In this document: positions 1 to 19,947 of the stretch, piece after piece
How positions within the stretch are numbered: the first letter of the stretch is position 1
How the letters are laid out: each line of letters begins with the position of its first letter
From: a virus
Lineage: Duplodnaviria; Heunggongvirae; Uroviricota; Caudoviricetes
Virus record (IMG/VR): IMGVR_UViG_2541047766_000005
Direction: 5' to 3' (one strand)
Length of the DNA stretch: 40,812 nt
Program-made: the position numbers and the translations under genes
Notes under the pieces: model-generated
Seen by the model: the letters and a program-made list of their open reading frames with translations, nothing else
What the model was told of the DNA's origin: nothing
The model's database searches: none

Positions 1-1284
1 TTACTTCTTCGCCTCTGCAACCACTTTGCTACCCACGCCGCGGTTATTGTATTCCCACATGCGGTTGTAGTTAGTGTCATTCAGATTGCGTTGTATTTCG
101 TCGTTATCATCAACGCTGCCGGTGTTACCCGCAAACGGACGATTAGAGATCACCGCATCAGCCCAGGGTTTGGCTGTGTTAAAACCTTCGTTGATGGCGC
201 TATCACGGATCACCACCTGACCGTTGGTATTGGCATCAACATCCAGCGAGCGACCCAGTTGCGCCACGCCATCACCGGAAGCATTGAAACGGCTGTTTAC
301 GGCGAGGAAACCGTAATAGATGTTAGACAGCGTAGCCGGTGCAAACACATACGCTTCTTGCTGAGTACGTGAGTTCACCACGCGGAATTCGGTGTTATCG
401 AACACCACTGCGCCGCGACCAGAAACGATATCCACATCCCCTTCAATGTAACTGTTGGTCACCAGAGTACGCGGCTGACGGTTGGTTTCCAGACGGTTTT
501 GCACACCACTGTTGGTGACAAAGAAGGTATTCTGACGACCGAGAATGTTGACGTTATTGATCTGCACTTTGTCACCATCAGTACGCAGTGCCACCGCCGG
601 ATGGTTACCCGCATCTACGCTATCGCCCAGCGTGTTTTCGATGGTCAGATTTTGCAGTTGCAGGCCATTGTTTTGTGACCAGAAGACCGCAGAGCAGAGA
701 ACACCGATACTGTCGCTGCGTTTGCTCTGGCAGCTATCGTACATATACCACGCTGGTTTACCTGGCATATATTTGCCGCGCGGGTTGACGTCGTGACGCC
801 AGTCGGCAGGGCTCATGCCCCCATCAAGGGAAAGCCCAATCTTCACATCAATCGGTTTTTCACCTGTACCGTACAGAGTAATTCCACCCGGAGCGGCAGG
901 GACATACACCGTTCCCTGATACTCACCAGGCATCACGGCAATATACTGGCGCTTGTTGGTGCGCTTGATAATTGCCGCATCTACCGCCGCCTGAATCGTG
1001 GTATGCGTTACACCTTGAGTACCCGCCGGGCCGACAACAAAGTCAGGTTGCGCAGGCAGGGTAATCGGGGAAGGATTCCACGCTGCCGCACCTGGTGTCA
1101 GGGATGCAAAATAGTGTTGAGCATCGAAATTCTGCGCTTCTTTTGCCGACAGAATCGGGCGAGAAGAGGTACCAGGCGCGGTTTGATCAGAAGGACGTTG
1201 ATCGGGCGGTGTTGAGCTACAGGCGGTCAGCGTCACGCCAAAAGCCAATGCCAGCGCCAGACGGGAAACTGAAAATGTGTTCAC
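1..1284 (-). CDS. ybhC: YbhC pectinesterase-family outer-membrane lipoprotein (host gene flanking lambda attB)
   Basis: 427-aa ORF with N-terminal lipoprotein signal (LTAC lipobox); sequence recognised as E. coli YbhC; sits immediately next to the attL core. Confidence 0.85.
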   Translation of the reverse strand: MNTFSVSRLALALAFGVTLTACSSTPPDQRPSDQTAPGTSSRPILSAKEAQNFDAQHYFASLTPGAAAWNPSPITLPAQPDFVVGPAGTQGVTHTTIQAAVDAAIIKRTNKRQYIAVMPGEYQGTVYVPAAPGGITLYGTGEKPIDVKIGLSLDGGMSPADWRHDVNPRGKYMPGKPAWYMYDSCQSKRSDSIGVLCSAVFWSQNNGLQLQNLTIENTLGDSVDAGNHPAVALRTDGDKVQINNVNILGRQNTFFVTNSGVQNRLETNRQPRTLVTNSYIEGDVDIVSGRGAVVFDNTEFRVVNSRTQQEAYVFAPATLSNIYYGFLAVNSRFNASGDGVAQLGRSLDVDANTNGQVVIRDSAINEGFNTAKPWADAVISNRPFAGNTGSVDDNDEIQRNLNDTNYNRMWEYNNRGVGSKVVAEAKK

Positions 1285-1315: not shown

Positions 1316-1420
1316 AATCCGTTGAAGCCTGCTTTTTTATACTAAGTTGGCATTATAAAAAAGCATTGCTTATCAATTTGTTGCAACGAACAGGTCACTA
1401 TCAGTCAAAATAAAATCATT
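1316..1420. other. attL: Lambda attL (B arm, 15-bp core GCTTTTTTATACTAA at 1331-1345, P' arm with arm-type Int sites)
   Basis: Exact lambda core at 1331-1345; left flank TGAAGCCT matches the attB B arm; right flank GTTGGCATTATAAAAAAGCATTGCTTATCAATTTGTTGCAACGAACAGGTCACTATCAGTCAAAATAAAATCATT matches the lambda P' arm (arm sites at 1391-1412). Confidence 0.93.
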
Positions 1421-2489
1421 ATTTGATTTCAATTTTGTCCCACTCCCTGCCTCTGTCATCACGATACTGTGATGCCATGGTGTCCGACTTATGCCCGAGA
1501 AGATGTTGAGCAAACTTATCGCTTATCTGCTTCTCATAGAGTCTTGCAGACAAACTGCGCAACTCGTGAAAGGTAGGCGGATCCCCTTCGAAGGAAAGAC
1601 CTGATGCTTTTCGTGCGCGCATAAAATACCTTGATACTGTGCCGGATGAAAGCGGTTCACGACGAGTAGATGCAATTATGGTTTCTCCGCCAAGAATCTC
1701 TTTGCATTTATCAAGTGTTTCCTTCATTGATATCCCGAGAGCATCAACATGCAATGTTGTTGGGATGGCAATTTTTACGCCTGTTTTGCTTTGCTCGACA
1801 TAAAGATATCCATCTACGATATCAGACCACTTCATTTCGCATAAATCACCAACTCGCTGCCCGGTAACAACAGCCAGTTCCATTGCAAGTCTGAGCCAAC
1901 ATGGTGATGATTCTGCTGCTTGATAAATTTTCAGGTATTCGTCAGCCGTAAGTCTTGATCTCCTTACCTCTGATTTTGCTGCGCGAGTGGCAGCGACAGG
2001 GTTTGTTGTTATATGGCCTTCAGCTATTGCCTCTCGGAATGCATCGCTCAGTGTTGATCTGATTAACTTGGCTGACGCAGCCTTGCCCTCGTCTATGTAT
2101 CCATTGAGCATTGCCGCAATTTCTTTTGTGGTGATGTCTTCAAGTGGAGCATCAGGCAGACCCCTCCTTATTGCTTTAATTTTGCTCATGTAATTTATGA
2201 GTGTCTTCTGCTTGATTCCTCTGCTGGCGAGGATTTTTTCGTAGCGATCAAGCCATGAATGTAACGTAACAGAATTATCACTGTTGATTCTCGCTGTCAG
2301 AGGCTTGTGTTTGTGTCCTGAAAATAACTCAATGTTGGCCTGTATAGCTTCAGTGATTGCTATCCTCCTGTCTCTGCCTAATCCGAACTCTTTACCCGTC
2401 CTTGGGTCCCTGTAGCAGTAATATCCATTGTTTCTTAAATAAAGGTTAGGGGGTAAATCCCGGCGCTCATGACTTCGCCTTCTTCCCAT
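1419..2489 (-). CDS. int: Lambda-type tyrosine integrase
   Basis: 356-aa ORF whose translation matches lambda Int as I recall it (MGRRRSHERRDLPPNLYLRNNGYYCYRDPRTGKEF...); adjacent to attL P' arm. Confidence 0.95.
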   Translation of the reverse strand: MGRRRSHERRDLPPNLYLRNNGYYCYRDPRTGKEFGLGRDRRIAITEAIQANIELFSGHKHKPLTARINSDNSVTLHSWLDRYEKILASRGIKQKTLINYMSKIKAIRRGLPDAPLEDITTKEIAAMLNGYIDEGKAASAKLIRSTLSDAFREAIAEGHITTNPVAATRAAKSEVRRSRLTADEYLKIYQAAESSPCWLRLAMELAVVTGQRVGDLCEMKWSDIVDGYLYVEQSKTGVKIAIPTTLHVDALGISMKETLDKCKEILGGETIIASTRREPLSSGTVSRYFMRARKASGLSFEGDPPTFHELRSLSARLYEKQISDKFAQHLLGHKSDTMASQYRDDRGREWDKIEIK

Positions 2490-2685
2490 TTCTGATCCTC
2501 TTCAAAAGGCTACCTGTTACTGGTCGATTTAAGTCAACCTTTACCGCTGATTCGTGGAACAGATACTCTCTTCCATCCTTAACCGGAGGAGGGAATATCC
2601 TGCATTCGCGCACCCATCGACGAACTGTTTCAAGGCTTCTTGGGCGTCGCTGGCGAGCGTTCCACTCCTGAAGAGTCAAGTACAT
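2467..2685 (-). CDS. xis: Excisionase
   Basis: 72-aa ORF MYLTLQEWNARQRRPRSLETVRRWVRECRIFPPPVKDGREY... matching lambda Xis; overlaps int 5' end as in lambda. Confidence 0.93.
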   Translation of the reverse strand: MYLTLQEWNARQRRPRSLETVRRWVRECRIFPPPVKDGREYLFHESAVKVDLNRPVTGSLLKRIRNGKKAKS

Positions 2686-2949: not shown

Positions 2950-3402
2950 TTAAGCGGCGTCGGTGAATTCAAATAAAAAACCGGCTTGCGCCGGCTCTCT
3001 CATCTTTCTGTCTACCCATGCTGATATCGATGGCGGATGCACCTTTTCAATAGCAGCGCGAAGTACAGCTGTACGTGCCAGTTTGTCGGTAATCTCAGGA
3101 AATCGCTTCTCTGTCTTCGGTACGTTAACAGCAACATTAGTAGAATCCGCACTGGCGAACGGATACATACCAAGAACTCTCACGTCGAGCATTCGAAGAC
3201 CATGAATTTTCACTTTCAAATTACGATTGATATAAATCTCAGTAAAAACTTCATCCATTCTCTGTTCCCACCATTTAGAGCGTATGTGCCTGTGTGGGCC
3301 GCAGCATCCAATCGCCACCCATTCAAATTTTCCAGAAAGGCGTAAAAGACGTTCAATTGATTCGTCGTATGCCAGACCGGAACCGCTTTTGATTTTAGCC
3401 AA
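2950..3402 (-). CDS. Hypothetical protein (possible C-terminal portion of the frameshifted gene, or spurious)
   Basis: 150-aa ORF overlapping 3216-3402 of the upstream ORF in a different frame; its 3' end contains a terminator-like hairpin (2981-2995) plus T-tract on the minus strand. Confidence 0.35.
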   Translation of the reverse strand: MAKIKSGSGLAYDESIERLLRLSGKFEWVAIGCCGPHRHIRSKWWEQRMDEVFTEIYINRNLKVKIHGLRMLDVRVLGMYPFASADSTNVAVNVPKTEKRFPEITDKLARTAVLRAAIEKVHPPSISAWVDRKMREPAQAGFLFEFTDAA

Positions 3403-3749
3403 TCAGGAACCAACTCAATCTGCTCGTCGTTTTCTGCCTCTGTCCCTTCGATAACGTCAGGTATAAGAAACCATTCAATTCTGCTGAACCACTTCCCAAC
3501 AAAGTCGTAGAATTTTGCTCGTCTCTTACTCCAGTCTACCGGAGTGCCTTTCTTTAATGCTTTCATCCAGTCGCTAAAAGCGCCGTTATCAAGGCGTATA
3601 TCACAAGGGAACATGGCAATCTTTTTCATCTGCTCTGGTCTGGCAAATGAAACAAAAGCCCCACTATCACGGTAAAGGGCTTTAATAAGCATATCTGTAG
3701 GGGCATGCTCATCACCCCATATTGGGCTGCCGTGAAAGTGGATGGTCAT
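3216..3749 (-). CDS. Hypothetical early-left protein (N-terminal portion of a possibly frameshifted gene)
   Basis: 177-aa ORF; its 3' third overlaps the next ORF (2950-3402) in another frame. Confidence 0.5.
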   Translation of the reverse strand: MTIHFHGSPIWGDEHAPTDMLIKALYRDSGAFVSFARPEQMKKIAMFPCDIRLDNGAFSDWMKALKKGTPVDWSKRRAKFYDFVGKWFSRIEWFLIPDVIEGTEAENDEQIELVPDWLKSKAVPVWHTTNQLNVFYAFLENLNGWRLDAAAHTGTYALNGGNREWMKFLLRFISIVI

Positions 3750-3807
3750 ATTATCCCCATATAAAAGAAATACCCGCGAGTGCGAGGATTGTTATGTAAT
3801 ATTTGGT

Positions 3808-4089
3808 TTAATCATCTATATGTTTTGTACAGAGAGGGCAAGTATCGTTTCCACCGTACTCGTGATAATAATTTTGCACGGTATCAGTCATTTCTCGCAC
3901 ATTGCAGAATGGGGATTTGTCTTCATTAGACTTATAAACCTTCATGGAATATTTGTATGCCGACTCTATATCTATACCTTCATCTACATAAACACCTTCG
4001 TGATGTCTGCATGGAGACAAGACACCGGATCTGCACAACATTGATAACGCCCAATCTTTTTGCTCAGACTCTAACTCATTGATACTCAT
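3808..4089 (-). CDS. Hypothetical Cys-containing small protein
   Basis: 93-aa ORF with AAGGAG Shine-Dalgarno 8 nt upstream of ATG; several Cys pairs (possible metal binding). Confidence 0.55.
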   Translation of the reverse strand: MSINELESEQKDWALSMLCRSGVLSPCRHHEGVYVDEGIDIESAYKYSMKVYKSNEDKSPFCNVREMTDTVQNYYHEYGGNDTCPLCTKHIDD

Positions 4090-4291
4090 TTATAAACTCC
4101 TTGCAATGTATGTCGTTTCAGCTAAACGGTATCAGCAATGTTTATGTAAAGAAACAGTAAGATAATACTCAACCCGATGTTTGAGTACGGTCATCATCTG
4201 ACACTACAGACTCTGGCATCGCTGTGAAGACGACGCGAAATTCAGCATTTTCACAAGTGTTATCTTTTACAAACCCGTATTCCTGCTCATA

Positions 4292-4843
4292 TCACTCTCC
4301 TTTGATGCGAATGCCTGTTGCAATGCTGTTTATGATGCTGTCAGTGCATGGGGTAGAAAGCTGGGCATCTCCAGCAATTTTCATGACCTCAACATCTGCA
4401 TATCGAATACCGAGGTGTATCAGACCGGCTATACCTGACTTAAGCCGAGCATTTTCCATAAACAGATCCTTTGCCCGCTGTTTTTCTGCCTCAAGCTCAA
4501 CGCGCAGCCTCCCAACCGTAAGCGCAATCTCCTCGTTCTCCTGGTCGCGGCGTTTGATGTACTGCTGGTTTCTTTCCCGTTCATCCAGTAGTGTCAGCAC
4601 GGTAGCCGGATTGGCTGCAGCGATGAATTCAGCATTGGCCTGCTGTTCCATTTGGAAATCTTCATCGAAACCGCTTTCAGGATGCGCTCCTTCAATTCTG
4701 CAAATGGGAATATATCCAGCAGCCTCGCGATGAATTAGCGCATCATCACCATCAAATCGGCCCTCTCCATATTCGAGCGACCACTCGCCACACGTTGCTT
4801 TTTCTGCCTTAGCACGCAGTGCCTGATAATCAATCTTGCTCAC
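4292..4843 (-). CDS. Ead/Ea22-like early protein
   Basis: 183-aa ORF; N-terminus (S)[19 protein letters not shown] resembles the Ead/Ea22 family of lambdoid phages; GTG start 6 nt after GGAGG. Confidence 0.6.
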   Translation of the reverse strand: MSKIDYQALRAKAEKATCGEWSLEYGEGRFDGDDALIHREAAGYIPICRIEGAHPESGFDEDFQMEQQANAEFIAAANPATVLTLLDERERNQQYIKRRDQENEEIALTVGRLRVELEAEKQRAKDLFMENARLKSGIAGLIHLGIRYADVEVMKIAGDAQLSTPCTDSIINSIATGIRIKGE

Positions 4844-5084
4844 TGGTTGCCTCCTGCTTTTCTGCCTTCAACACCATGCGAGAACCATCATCCAGATCCC
4901 ACGCGATCTCACCACCTTCAGCCATGACCAGTCGCCACACCAATTGAGCAGCCTCATTGGTAACATCACGACCTGGATCATTGCCAACGCGCATACGTCC
5001 ACCTTCAACATCGCGCATTTTTGCCAGCATGATAGTTTTTGATAGCGGTGAAAAACCAAGCTGTAGTCGTGCTGAATTACTCAC
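4830..5084 (-). CDS. Hypothetical early protein
   Basis: ORF in leftward operon; likely GTG start at 5084 preceded by AGGAGG (track ORF extends to ATG at 5105). Confidence 0.45.
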
Positions 5085-5244
5085 TGGTTGCCTCCTTTGC
5101 GCCACATCGCATTCAGATATTTGTTGTCATTAACAGAACCGAAACTCTTTCTCTTAAGCAATTCCTCTCTCGATGGCATTGGCTTTACGCGTTGGCGAAT
5201 AATCATTTCTGCCGGAAGAATGCCGGGATTGTATGAAAGTCCTC

Positions 5245-5526
5245 TCATGATTTACTCTCCATGAACTGGTCAACAGCCATGCTAAGTGATACACCTAAAG
5301 TCTCGATATGCTGCTGAATATCCTGTAGCGTCTGCGCCTGAGATAACAGGATTTCACGGTTGCATAACTCTTTGACCAGATGCTCAAACTTGCTGTAATG
5401 ACCGATACGACTTAGTGTTTCTTTCCCTGCATTCTCGCCTTCTTTGATAATTCCTCTTTCGCTAAGAATCAGATCGTGTTTGGTTCCGGTGATAACGTAT
5501 TTGCCGAGGTCGATGTTTAGCTTCAT
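5245..5526 (-). CDS. Hypothetical early protein
   Basis: 93-aa ORF co-oriented with the leftward early operon. Confidence 0.5.
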
Positions 5527-5542
5527 TGTTAATTATTCCATG

Positions 5543-5857
5543 TTAATTTATTCGTATGCCTGCTCTTTCTTCATCGAGTCTTTTTAGCTTGTATCGCATA
5601 GCCCTTACTGAATAAATTGAACGGCAGGTTGCAATTGCTATTTCTTCTGCGGAGAACTTACCGAAAAGTGATACTTCGGCTCTTGTCCAGCGTCTTCCAC
5701 GAAGTCGGCTAACAATGTCAGCACCAATCCTTGTTGCTTTCGCCATTACTGCTTTTTCAGTCCTTTCCAGTTTTTCAGCGATAACTTCAACTGGCATTGT
5801 CGCCGCCACTTCGCGCAAGAAATCGACTTCCCATTTCTCCCATGAAGTCTTTTTCAT
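5543..5857 (-). CDS. Hypothetical early protein with two internally similar helix-rich segments
   Basis: 104-aa ORF, co-oriented, 12 nt after preceding gene. Confidence 0.5.
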   Translation of the reverse strand: MKKTSWEKWEVDFLREVAATMPVEVIAEKLERTEKAVMAKATRIGADIVSRLRGRRWTRAEVSLFGKFSAEEIAIATCRSIYSVRAMRYKLKRLDEERAGIRIN

Positions 5858-5868
5858 AGTCGAGACCG

Positions 5869-6351
5869 TTATTTGATAAGAAGTGAAGGTTTCCCAACTT
5901 TGAGTTGAGCGCCGGGGATATTTATTCCTGCTTTTAGTTGGTGTTTGATTGCCAGTTTGTCGGCTTTAATTGTCGTTTCAAACTCAACGTATTCAGGAGG
6001 AAGGGCGCTTGAGTCGATGATTTCTACAGTTTCTGACGGTTTGCGGATTGTTACCTGGTGAATACCTGCTCGAATCTTTTTCTTGCCAACCATTTCAAGC
6101 GATGACGCTATATACGCCATAATGCTGTCAATCTTATTTTGAATTACTGCGGCTCGCTCATTTAGTGACTGTGCCTCTTCCTTGAGGCGTTCAGCATAAC
6201 CAGATTCATTTTTAATAATGGCAAGAAGTTGCTCTATTTTATCGGTAAATTCTCCTTCCATGCCTTCTATTGTGTCAGCAATCATCTCTGGCTCTAAATC
6301 TGAATCTATCAGCTTTGCGTATTCATTGGCAATTTCATACAGTTTGCTCAC
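5869..6351 (-). CDS. Siphovirus Gp157-like protein (commonly paired with RecT/Erf recombinases)
   Basis: 160-aa ORF directly downstream of recT; GTG start at 6351 6 nt after GGAGG (track ORF starts at TTG 6357); family assignment from memory. Confidence 0.55.
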   Translation of the reverse strand: MSKLYEIANEYAKLIDSDLEPEMIADTIEGMEGEFTDKIEQLLAIIKNESGYAERLKEEAQSLNERAAVIQNKIDSIMAYIASSLEMVGKKKIRAGIHQVTIRKPSETVEIIDSSALPPEYVEFETTIKADKLAIKHQLKAGINIPGAQLKVGKPSLLIK

Positions 6352-7237
6352 TGGCAACCTCCAGTTTCGCTTTGCATTCTGCGTAAATGGCTTGTACGTT
6401 CTGCTGCAATTTCATTCCAGATGTCAGGCGATATGCTTCTGCAAAATATCTCTTCAAATCATCCATGTTTTCAGCCTGAGCCATTTCATCACAAAGAAGT
6501 TGTGCTTTTTCCATTATTTCCTGCTGGCGTTTCCGTTCATCTTCGCGGATATCTTCCTCTGATTTGTGCGGCATAACCGGTTCCTGATGCATACCCTCAT
6601 CTTCGTTAAGCAGGTGAATGGCATTATCCAGTCGCTGGGCTTTAGGCCAGTATTTGCTGGCGCGTTTAACTATTGTTTTACGCGCCATCTCTTCCCAGAA
6701 TGTCTTCCACGGTCCATTCTTTGCCTTGCTCGTTGCTTCCACAGCTTTAATTTCTGCCAGACTCATTTCTTCAGTCAGGTAGTCACCATCTGCTGTTTTA
6801 ACCGTGCAATAACCACCAACAATAGAGCCTCGCTCACCAAATGCGTTGTATTTGTGGGTTGGCGCTGAATCAAGGCCGTTTGATTCATAGGTGTCGTTTG
6901 AGTACACCAGTTTACATTGCCCCCACTTAATTGATCCTGTCGACTGTGCAAGGTGAAGTAATCCCATATAGCTGATATCAAGGCAAACCATGCCGTCGCG
7001 CGGAACTAGATAAGCAAGTTTGCTGGCCGGGTTTAAGGTGATGCCGATCGCCGCAACATTGATGATGGCGTTCTGTGCGCTGGTTGGATTTGCCAGTGCC
7101 GTTTTAGCCAGGTAATCATTTTTCTGGAAATACTGAATTGCAAACTGGCTTTCCTTAGCCCATGTCACCGTCTGTTCAGTCAATGCTCCGCAGAATAACT
7201 GCTCCTGCTGTTTAACGAATTCAACGATATTGCTCAT
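6335..7237 (-). CDS. recT: RecT-family single-strand annealing recombinase
   Basis: 300-aa ORF with RecT-like core; occupies the bet position of the lambda early-left operon; GGAGAAG SD upstream. Confidence 0.8.
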   Translation of the reverse strand: MSNIVEFVKQQEQLFCGALTEQTVTWAKESQFAIQYFQKNDYLAKTALANPTSAQNAIINVAAIGITLNPASKLAYLVPRDGMVCLDISYMGLLHLAQSTGSIKWGQCKLVYSNDTYESNGLDSAPTHKYNAFGERGSIVGGYCTVKTADGDYLTEEMSLAEIKAVEATSKAKNGPWKTFWEEMARKTIVKRASKYWPKAQRLDNAIHLLNEDEGMHQEPVMPHKSEEDIREDERKRQQEIMEKAQLLCDEMAQAENMDDLKRYFAEAYRLTSGMKLQQNVQAIYAECKAKLEVASEQTV

Positions 7238-7545
7238 GCTGCTTCTCCATAAATGTGTCTGCGTTTGAATATTGCGAAGGCATATTCAGCCTTAACTCTT
7301 TCGGTTATTGCATCCCAGAACCATTCAGCGGCTTTTTCCTGATAGTCACAGTCATCATCTTCCAGCCAGTCGATAGCGTCCTTAGTGTGTTCATCTGGCT
7401 TATATGAGCGAAGCATTTCGCTTATTGGGTCGCAGCGTTTGCAGAGGCGATCAACTTCACTGTTGATTCGTTCGTAATCTTCATCAGTAAAACTTGCGAT
7501 GATTTGCGATATTTCACGCTTATCATTCAGAGTCAGAATCATCAT
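7234..7545 (-). CDS. Hypothetical early protein
   Basis: 103-aa ORF, ATGA overlap with recT. Confidence 0.5.
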   Translation of the reverse strand: MMILTLNDKREISQIIASFTDEDYERINSEVDRLCKRCDPISEMLRSYKPDEHTKDAIDWLEDDDCDYQEKAAEWFWDAITERVKAEYAFAIFKRRHIYGEAA

Positions 7546-7627
7546 CTTTCTCCTGTTCTTTGTGCTGATTGAGCATTTTGTTCATCTGACGAATGAATTC
7601 TTCGTCTGACCAGTTATCTGTAAAACT

Positions 7628-11961: not shown

Positions 11962-12123
11962 ATGACAAAACGTCGTAAGAAATACCAGGAAAAAGAAGAG
12001 ATTCGACACCCTGATTCACCTGAGGGATTAGTGGTAGCCGCAGCAAATAACAGGGCGTTCGCAGAGCGCCTTGTTGGTGTTTACAGACTAGCCAAAGCAG
12101 GAGTGAAACATGGGCGTCGTTAA
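11962..12123 (+). CDS. Small basic hypothetical protein between cII and O
   Basis: 53-aa ORF from ATG 11962 with AGGAG SD; track ORF starts earlier at 11917. Confidence 0.4.
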   Translation: MTKRRKKYQEKEEIRHPDSPEGLVVAAANNRAFAERLVGVYRLAKAGVKHGRR

Positions 12124-12931
12124 GTTAGCTGATTACAGGCCTCAACTGGAGGTCGTGGAGCATCGCTTGGCAGATACCGAAGATGGTTTCATGCGCGTTG
12201 CTAACGAGATTACCGACAGTCTGCTGATGGCTGATTTAACCGTCCGGCAGTTGAAGGTGATGCTCGCTATCATGCGCAAGACATACGGATTCAATAAGCC
12301 GATGGATCGACTCACAAACACGCAGATAGCAGCCATGACAGGTATTCATCACACTCATGTTTGCGCTGCCAAGCGCCAGCTTATTGAGCGTAAATTCCTC
12401 ATTGCTGATGGCGTGAAAATCGGAGTGAACAAGGTGGTTTCTCAGTGGATTAGCCAGGACAGCTTAAAATTAGCTAAAACAGCTAATAAAACATTAGCTA
12501 AGTCGGCTAATGGGTATAAGCCAAGTCAGCTAAACACAAAAGACAATATACAAAAGACAATAAATACAAATACCCCCTTACCCCCTAACGGGGGCGGCGA
12601 TGGGCAGGTTAAACCTGAACGTCGCAAGGCAGAACGAATCGACTACGAATCCTTCCTGAACGCCTACAACACCGAAGTCGGTGACAGACTTCCACATGCT
12701 GTTGCGGTCAACGAGAAACGCAAACGCCGCCTGAAGAAAATCATCCCGCAACTGAAAACGCCAAACGTGGACGGTTTCAGAGCGTATGTCAGGGCGTTTG
12801 TGCATCAGGCCAAGCCGTTTTACTTCGGAGACAACGACACGGGCTGGACGGCCGATTTTGATTACCTGCTGAGAGAAGATTCGTTAACGGGAGTTCGTGA
12901 AGGGAAGTTTGCAGACAGGGGGATTGCATGA
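12110..12931 (+). CDS. Replication initiator (O-like replisome organiser)
   Basis: 273-aa ORF in the lambda O position with AGGAG SD; contains internal iteron/AT-rich ori-like segment. Confidence 0.75.
12460..12565. repeat. Putative replication origin inside the O-like gene: AGCTAA iterons plus AT-rich tandem repeat
   Basis: AGCTAA/GGCTAA repeated at 12472, 12481, 12496, 12505, 12528; CAAAAGACAATA direct repeat at 12537-12548 and 12551-12562. Confidence 0.5.
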
Positions 12932-19803: not shown

Positions 19804-19947
19804 ACATCTGAATTTCACCGCGCATCTCACGCGCATATTAACGAGAGCCTTTCAGTAAGCGAGCCTGAGAAATGCCGTTATAGGTGGCGACCTCTCTCGG
19901 GCGGCTTTTCTGTGAGACAGGCTCACTTTCTAAAAGGTAAAGACGCT

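Follow-up and report, generated by a model that had tools for sequence, protein, structure and literature searches.

Three genes in the leftward early operon of the viral sequence IMGVR_UViG_2541047766_000005 (40,812 nucleotides, the whole of which is called the window here) begin with GTG behind GGAGG and a six-base spacer. The window is a mosaic lambdoid prophage of Escherichia coli. Two of these junctions, at the starts of an ead/ea22-like gene (site 1) and a DUF7446 gene (site 2), are likely to be copies of a conserved linker that carries the ribosome site and belongs to the boundary sequences. The third, between recT and a Gp157-family gene (site 3), is a conserved gene-pair junction and not a shuffling point. 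A first-pass annotation made from the sequence alone had read all three as a conserved module boundary used for gene shuffling. That proposal stands for sites 1 and 2, where neighboring genes reassort around a short shared block and homology breakpoints peak, and falls at site 3, where the pair is fixed.

Three junctions with a common ribosome-binding site and start

The minus strand carries all three junctions, and their GTG codons stand at 4843, 5084, and 6351. The junctions and the genes that meet at them are as follows.

Site 1: GGAGG 4854-4850, spacer CAACCA 4849-4844, GTG 4843-4841, then AGCAA; minus strand; start of the ead/ea22-like gene.
Site 1 linker: 4836..4857, minus strand; GCAGGAGGCAACCAGTGAGCAA, read as caGGAGGcaaccaGTGagcaag at 4856-4835.
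Site 2: GGAGG 5095-5091, spacer CAACCA 5090-5085, GTG 5084-5082, then AGTAA; minus strand.
Site 2 linker: 5077..5098, minus strand; AAAGGAGGCAACCAGTGAGTAA, read as aaaGGAGGcaaccaGTGagtaat at 5098-5076.
Site 3: GGAGG 6362-6358, spacer TTGCCA, GTG 6351-6349, then AGCAA; minus strand.
Site 3 junction: 6344..6362, minus strand; GGAGGTTGCCAGTGAGCAA, read as ctGGAGGttgccaGTGagcaaa at 6364-6343.
ead/Ea22-like gene: 4292..4843, minus strand; 183 aa, GTG start; Pfam Ead_Ea22 E = 9.4e-33, residues 2-152 against profile 1-139.
DUF7446 cassette: 4830..5084, minus strand; 84 aa, GTG start; Pfam DUF7446 E = 3e-18; phrog_1578 profile 1-76 against residues 4-83.
DUF2737 gene: 5081..5248, minus strand; 55 aa, its last five codons the linker; Pfam DUF2737 E = 1e-28.
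Siphovirus Gp157-family gene: 5869..6351, minus strand; 160 aa, GTG start; Pfam Sipho_Gp157 residues 3-160 against profile 1-162 of 162; phrog_253.
recT, single-strand annealing recombinase: 6335..7237, minus strand; Pfam RecT E = 2.5e-33.

The GGAGG and the six-base spacer, CAACCA or TTGCCA, were confirmed before the GTG at 4843, 5084, and 6351. The first-pass annotation gave GTG-AGC-AA as the opening of all three genes, which is correct for sites 1 and 3, where GTGAGCAA is read, and wrong for site 2, where AGTAA follows (GTGAGTAA, start 5084). The exact pattern GGAGG-N6-GTGAGCAA has two matches in the window, sites 1 and 3. The relaxed pattern GGAGGNNNCCAGTGAG has three matches compared to 0.01 expected, and none of 100 shuffles reached three. 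An independent repeat search of the window recovered this family of three copies, spaced 241 and 1267 apart. Sites 1 and 2 are identical over 17 consecutive bases, AGGAGGCAACCAGTGAG, and lie 241 bp apart with one small gene, DUF7446, between them; site 3 matches site 1 at 16 of 19 bases. The Shine-Dalgarno sequence is the 7-nt AAGGAGG at site 2, and the GGAGG of site 1 is preceded by CA. Only these three among the 36 Shine-Dalgarno-preceded candidate starts of the window combine GGAGG and GTG with a preceding CCA and a following AG, and the remaining 33 do not resemble the linker. For sites 1 and 2, these data bear out the first-pass expectation that the motif is more frequent at gene starts than a strong Shine-Dalgarno sequence plus chance would give.

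Each motif falls within the 3' end of its upstream gene. The overlap between neighboring genes is 4 nt at site 2 (a GTGA stop/start), whereas site 1 has 14 nt and site 3 has 17 nt. The GTG of site 2 overlaps the DUF2737 stop, TGA 5083-5081, and the linker there encodes the DUF2737 tail K-G-G-N-Q-stop; at site 3, the gp157 Shine-Dalgarno sequence and GTG start lie within the last 17 nt of recT. All three junctions have the arrangement of coupled junctions, with GGAGG 6 nt before the GTG and inside the upstream open reading frame (ORF), and a start that overlaps the stop. These tightly packed genes are probably translationally coupled.

The likeness among the sites could be accidental, the product of a strong Shine-Dalgarno sequence and GTG helped by a preference for Ser at the second codon and Lys or Asn at the third. 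MSK and MSN amino termini are frequent in the loci fetched for comparison, which are a biased sample. Chance may hold for site 3 only, where 8 of the 16 shared bases are GGAGG and GTG themselves and no shuffling is seen. Sites 1 and 2 are different, since their 17 shared bases run through the functionally free spacer. Chance is rejected for these two sites by the window expectation of 0.01, by the reassorting contexts, and by the 23-mer found behind unrelated genes (both below), and as a general account it is very improbable.

The linker core among unrelated neighbors

IMG/VR was scanned with the motif and with four anchors that adjoin the motif but exclude it. All counts from these scans are samples among the matches listed (at least 120 per scan). 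The anchored scans alone are unbiased, because the motif scans preselect positions -14 to +7. The background frequency of CCA-GTG-AGYAA among GGAGG starts was set aside because the fetched loci were partly chosen by the motif, and the within-window census was used instead.

The core was present in at least 120 IMG/VR contigs per scan, and it is short and conserved among otherwise dissimilar lambdoid genomes, as expected of a boundary sequence. In IMG/VR and GenBank phages, the core GGAGGCANCCAGTGA occurred in at least 133 unique 660-nt contexts, with at least 21 upstream and at least 31 downstream clusters joined in at least 73 combinations. The sequences joined to it on the downstream side include DUF7446, an Sf6 gp22-like gene, numerous ea22 bodies, and the starts of at least eight other genes. 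Where two junctions differ on both sides, what they have in common is a block centered on the motif, with a median length of 25 nt (interquartile range, 19-44). The right edges of the block are mostly at +3 to +7, or at about +31 where both partners are ea22 genes.

The ea22-head anchor gave a similar picture. At least 154 unique contexts were recovered, with at least 26 upstream and at least 13 downstream clusters in at least 72 combinations. The adjusted mutual information (AMI) between the upstream gene and the ea22 body was 0.11 among the matches listed, which is near free reassortment. The identical 23-mer AAAGGAGGCAACCAGTGAGCAAG stood behind at least five unrelated upstream genes in this sample. 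The linker is thus identical by descent and has been recombined many times on both sides, because the constraint-free spacer and flanking bases are identical at junctions that share neither neighbor.

Among GenBank phages, 404 records match the 61 nt around site 1, and the match usually begins at 4855, where GGAGG has its left edge, and ends at 4813. Phages of Salmonella and Shigella also carry it, as the phage collections show. In a bacterial set with one genome per species, the 19-mer was found in eight places, two Escherichia contigs and six scattered ones; by our own calculation, chance alone would give about four matches over both strands of 596 Gb, and only the Escherichia matches look real.

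Homology breakpoints at sites 1 and 2

The first-pass annotation had proposed searching for a 17-mer across lambdoid genomes and asking whether it marks mosaic breakpoints. Breakpoints were taken as the ends of BLAST alignments between window positions 3700-7600 and all fetched loci (about 390).

5060-5119: 196 ends; site 2.
4840-4859: 61 ends; site 1.
5240-5259: 137 ends; DUF2737 start.
5520-5559: 84 ends; DUF5405 start.
6340-6359: 4 ends of about 130 covering alignments; site 3.

Breakpoints cluster at sites 1 and 2 and not at site 3, and the peak at 5100-5119 falls exactly where the DUF2737 tail starts. Non-homologous flanks on both sides of the junction were found for sites 1 and 2 and not for site 3.

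The DUF2737 gene provides a direct comparison of borders with and without the linker. The DUF2737 anchor revealed two alternative, mutually exclusive 3' tails. The tail CGGAGTGGGAAGAAATGA (RSGKK-stop, with an ATGA overlap) leads to the same HK97-gp37/hkaH-like gene in all 107 unique contexts listed. The tail CGCAAAGGAGGCAACCAGTGA (RKGGNQ-stop, with GTGA) leads to at least 11 downstream clusters in at least 64 contexts. The hkaH-like gene also ends in ...ADQLRKGGNQ-stop, so the DUF2737-linker-ea22 arrangement could derive from DUF2737-hkaH-linker-ea22 by a deletion between two Arg codons.

The linker stands on either side of the DUF7446 cassette, whose stop falls 14 nt into the ea22-like gene. 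Two loci (L066 and L088) join DUF2737 to ea22 through a single linker, and the window and locus L115 have linker-DUF7446-linker. Alignment with L066 and L088 shows that the loci with and without DUF7446 differ by a clean indel of 241 bp, with the 17-nt repeat at its borders. Elsewhere, DUF7446 stands behind five different upstream genes.

The upstream ORFs read the linker in two frames. Among the 133 contexts listed, 91 end in ...KGGNQ-stop at the TGA of GTGA (+1), and in 39 the upstream ORF ends in ...EA(T/A)SE(QD)-stop at a TAA or TGA at +5 or +11. These observations bear on the idea that the block is kept for another function, either as an RNA structure or translational regulator site, as a KGGNQ carboxy-terminal peptide, or as the target duplication of a mobile DUF7446 insert. 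The same pentapeptide does end many upstream proteins, but it is not conserved as a peptide, because the upstream genes read the linker in two frames. One copy in the empty site (L066 and L088) and two copies flanking 241 bp in the filled site formally resemble a target duplication. However, the cassette encodes only an 84-aa protein without a recognizable recombinase domain. A target-site duplication made by a mobile DUF7446 cassette was rejected, because many other genes are also flanked by the linker and DUF7446 occurs behind five different upstream genes. An Rfam search of the whole window had no match, and the folds of 91-nt segments at the three junctions did not differ from shuffles (z = -1.4, +1.5, and +0.5), so an RNA element was rejected as well. 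Taken as a group, these functions have only a slim chance of explaining the block.

The ea22-like gene continues the mosaic pattern inward. Its protein matched 17 PHROG families, several of them through residues 1-21 only, and breakpoints also occur inside the gene at about 4600-4640 and about 4460-4500. At least three exchangeable segments make up the mosaic ea22-like body. Ea22 genes have been described as mosaic, with an amino-terminal segment shared among variants (PMC10834534). In some contigs, two or three ead/ea22-like genes follow one another in tandem (locus L017 at 12096-12698, L039, L014, and L082). Each tandem copy begins with the linker and an MSKIDYQ head and ends in ...QLRKGGNQ-stop, forming paralogous cassette arrays with the same linker between the genes.

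Site 3 is a fixed gene pair

The anchor at the 3' end of recT returned the same junction and the same gp157 gene in 123 of the 124 loci listed, and the anchor at the 5' end of gp157 returned recT upstream in 118 of the 120 loci listed. Present-day shuffling at site 3 was not seen in these two anchored IMG/VR scans or in the breakpoint map. Beyond GGAGG and GTG, the site 3 likeness to the linker amounts to eight bases, CCA and AGCAA. The two sequences may be anciently related, or the likeness may be coincidental, aided by how common a Met-Ser-Lys start is.

GTG start codons

Comparison with homologues supports GTG initiation at all three sites. The first-pass annotation had stated that these genes use GTG in place of an upstream ATG or TTG chosen by naive ORF calling. 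The genes do appear to start at the GTG, given ATG substitutions at the same position, in-frame stops upstream, and agreement with profile starts, but the description of the naive calls is right for site 3 only, where TTG 6357 is chosen. The upstream codon at site 2 is GTG 5105 and not ATG or TTG, and the naive call at site 1 is already GTG 4843.

Among the matches listed, the ea22 coding head alone found 125 loci, 84 with GTG and 27 with ATG at the ea22 start position; the Sf6 ea22-like gene has ATG there. The gp157 start is ATG in 2 of 120 homologues listed, both with a different upstream gene. The upstream TTG at site 3 abuts GGAGG directly, with zero spacer, and in a divergent recT-gp157 pair (L019) this TTG is replaced by TAA. 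The upstream in-frame GTG of DUF7446 at 5105 (-21) is missing behind other partners, and several loci have an in-frame TAA that cuts it off. Matches of the GTG-started proteins to Pfam and PHROG profiles begin within residues 1-7. The HK140 RefSeq record (L003; gp157 gene 2459-2941) annotates the equivalent starts, with the gp157 GTG in a 17-nt overlap. The record of phage Gally (L004, OV696608; 2501-2941) places the gp157-family start at an ATG 42 nt downstream of the GTG. Thus, correct GTG starts are missed by mechanical ORF callers and by some deposited records, as in Gally, where gp157 begins 42 nt too late.

Relation to bsq3 and other known systems

The linker at sites 1 and 2 is already known; it is an ordinary, well-documented example of the boundary-sequence model of lambda-like phages. 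The Sf6 record AF547987 annotates "bsq3; boundary sequence" as a misc_feature at 19844-19874, the first 31 nt of the ead/ea22-like gene 21, and this feature begins at the second base of the start codon. The boundary idea is not new here, because the 31 nt that adjoin the linker at site 1 correspond to bsq3.

bsq3 equivalent: 4812..4842, minus strand; TGAGCAAGATTGAYTATCAGGCACTGCGTG; conserved first 31 nt of ead/ea22-family genes, 29/31 identity with Sf6.

Positional identity with an annotated boundary was found at site 1 only, and an annotated counterpart of sites 2 and 3 was not found in the Sf6 or HK620 records. HK620 reportedly has seven boundary sequences in its metabolic domain. No new kind of element is involved.

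The model, in which short conserved sequences at module borders are foci of homologous recombination, is credited in PMC3233612 to Susskind & Botstein 1978 and Clark et al. 2001. The boundary sequences of Clark et al. 2001 (Clark, Inwood, Cloutier & Dhillon, J Mol Biol 311:657) resemble the linker in being short and conserved among otherwise dissimilar lambdoid genomes, in lying in the early-left operon at the borders of exchangeable modules, and in being proposed foci of recombination, and Sf6 bsq3 is of this kind. The differences from bsq3 are that the Sf6 upstream leader is not the same, that the Shine-Dalgarno/spacer/GTG core of the window lies just outside the annotated feature, and that site 2 (DUF2737 to DUF7446) has the core without an ea22 head. 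The inter-module linker homologies of the modular theory (Susskind & Botstein 1978, as given in PMC3233612) are likewise short sequences shared between interchangeable modules. Compared to that account, the interchangeable units of the window are individual small accessory genes and not functional modules, and part of the linker is coding sequence.

Lambdoid nin regions typically have ATGA stop/start overlaps (Kroger & Hobom 1982 and Cheng et al. 1995, as cited in PMC8022706). The junctions share with them the tight packing and a TGA that overlaps the next start; site 2 has GTGA, and an NTGA overlap is present at 14 of the 36 candidate starts of the window. In contrast to the nin-region overlaps, here a GTG follows a full GGAGG, and about 20 nt, not 4 nt, are identical across unrelated gene pairs.

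The outcome is also like that of integron cassettes with attC, where small promoterless genes have a recurring short element between them and presence or absence is bounded by that element. The likeness is in outcome only, since the linker has no structured recombination site and its crossover edges vary. No recombinase is tied to the linker either, and the sole integrase-like gene in the region examined, at 1419-2489, lies beside a ybhC-like gene. The structured site, fixed crossover, and dedicated enzyme of a site-specific cassette system or a target-site duplication were not found.

How the linker may work

Sites 1 and 2 are copies of a single linker, (AA)AGGAGGCAACCAGTGAG, about 17-22 nt long and identical by descent in hundreds of enterobacterial lambda-like phages. 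Its AAGGAGG can pair with seven anti-Shine-Dalgarno bases, and the GTG is positioned six bases on. The linker holds stops for the upstream gene in both other frames, so that a fusion would arise only for an ORF that arrives in the downstream gene's own frame. The linker probably serves as a homology patch because many genes carry it, together with about 31 conserved coding bases at ea22. In the ea22 consensus, it extends to about 45-70 nt with the coding head and a frequent ...A-x-Q-L-R tail on the left. Recombination at or beside this patch, by host RecA or by a phage annealing protein of the RecT/Erf/Red-beta type, would swap cassettes, and after each swap every gene would keep a working stop, ribosome site, and start. 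The simplest route would be a homologous or short-homology exchange between genomes whose cassettes share the linker. RecT is a candidate for the phage's own enzyme in such short-homology recombination.

Phage recombinases of the Rad52-like group, RecT included, form mosaics where the homology is short or diverged; for efficient pairing, Red-beta needs a segment of at least 23-27 bp and RecA one of at least 31-34 bp (PMC3945230). The operon encodes a RecT-family protein, which connects it to the relaxed Rad52-like recombination of Martinsohn et al. 2008 (PMC2327257) and De Paepe et al. 2014 (PMC3945230). The published homologies are hundreds of bp long, whereas the use of a 17-45 nt linker would be an extrapolation from them.

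The alternative is random illegitimate recombination followed by selection, the view of Hendrix and Juhala. In this view joins fall anywhere, and those that survive are the ones at gene borders. The linker would then be a ribosome-binding site that hitch-hikes with the retained neighbor and marks borders without supplying homology for recombination. Several of our results weigh toward this alternative or against exchange within the linker. The 17-22 nt core is shorter than the 23-27 bp minimal efficient pairing segment. On its left side the shared block begins anywhere from -11 to -36, a scatter that several independent joins explain as well as one hotspot does. Linker variants track the upstream gene (AMI 0.47) far more than the ea22 body (0.12), and upstream genes with quite different linkers (Sf6-type and AGA-ATG type) reassort with four to five ea22 bodies. 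Many ea22 crossovers must therefore lie in the coding head or deeper, outside the Shine-Dalgarno/GTG core. The conservation of positions -14 to +7 in the two motif-selected IMG/VR scans exists by construction. Entry of upstream genes into the linker in two reading frames is expected of frame-blind joins, and many phage boundaries have no conserved sequence at all (PMC3233612).

Other results are difficult to obtain by random joining. Junctions that share neither flank share the spacer and flanking bases, which Shine-Dalgarno and start function alone do not fix. Random joining would require two separate, precise joins at each edge of a 20-nt block, many times over. The linker-less borders of the operon are almost never broken (DUF2737-ATGA, 107/107; recT-gp157, 123/124 listed), whereas linker borders have at least 11 partners. 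Targeting is favored over random joining plus selection because linker borders have many partners and the linker-less borders of the same genes have one. We consider random joining unlikely. If the linker is a boundary sequence, we lean, somewhat cautiously, toward its homology being the recombination substrate itself. On this sequence evidence, we infer that homologous recombination inside the linker, and not selection after random joining, would make the combinations.

The junctions offer a clean and quantifiable case for the old debate on phage mosaicism, which sets targeted recombination at boundary sequences against random joining plus selection. Within one operon, a single upstream gene has at least 11 downstream clusters with the linker and one without it, which makes the question testable experimentally. 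A further idea, which we regard as a long shot, is that the linker is a selected "universal adaptor", a single 20-nt unit that holds a strong Shine-Dalgarno sequence, a start, and stops in both other frames. A gene that joins its left edge in frame 1 or 2 would then be closed, with translation of the following gene preserved. If this were true, its spread through accessory genes would let RecT, Erf, or Red-beta shuffle single genes far faster than at linker-less borders, and the result would be a cassette system like that of integrons, driven by short homology and not by a site-specific recombinase.

Setting of the junctions in the window

Neither half of the window is covered to 80% by any single phage record, which identifies the window as a mosaic lambdoid prophage. 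P22-like virion genes are on its far side. An integrase-like gene and a small ORF in the excisionase position are followed by the leftward early operon of small genes. The remaining features of this region are as follows.

1-1284, minus strand: YbhC-type acyl-CoA thioester hydrolase, a host gene; full-length match to the equivalog NCBIfam PRK10531; left end of the window.
1419-2489, minus strand: integrase-like gene; weak tyrosine-recombinase matches only; adjoins the ybhC-like gene.
2467-2685, minus strand: small ORF in the excisionase position, next to the integrase-like gene.
4089-3808, minus strand: ea8.5-like gene.
5526-5245, minus strand: DUF5405 gene.
5857-5543, minus strand: D5-like regulator fragment, 104 aa.

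The order of a host ybhC-like gene followed by the integrase-like gene and the small ORF indicates a prophage with an attL junction near 1290-1420. The lambda attachment site is flanked by ybhC, and the integrase-like and excisionase-position proteins appear to resemble lambda Int and Xis. The Gp157-family gene of site 3 is labeled "Mu Gam-like end protection" by PHROGs and RefSeq. A two-copy repeat family, D1 (567-592 and 4798-4823), was considered as a second ea22 head and rejected as a chance 77% match inside the host ybhC-like gene. The profile phrog_887 (queuine tRNA-ribosyltransferase-like) is matched by two overlapping minus-strand ORFs, 3749-3216 (profile 10-142) and 3402-2950 (profile 135-318). 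This pair (2950-3749, minus strand) looks like one frameshift-split gene, which would be a pseudogene, a sequencing error, or a programmed shift.

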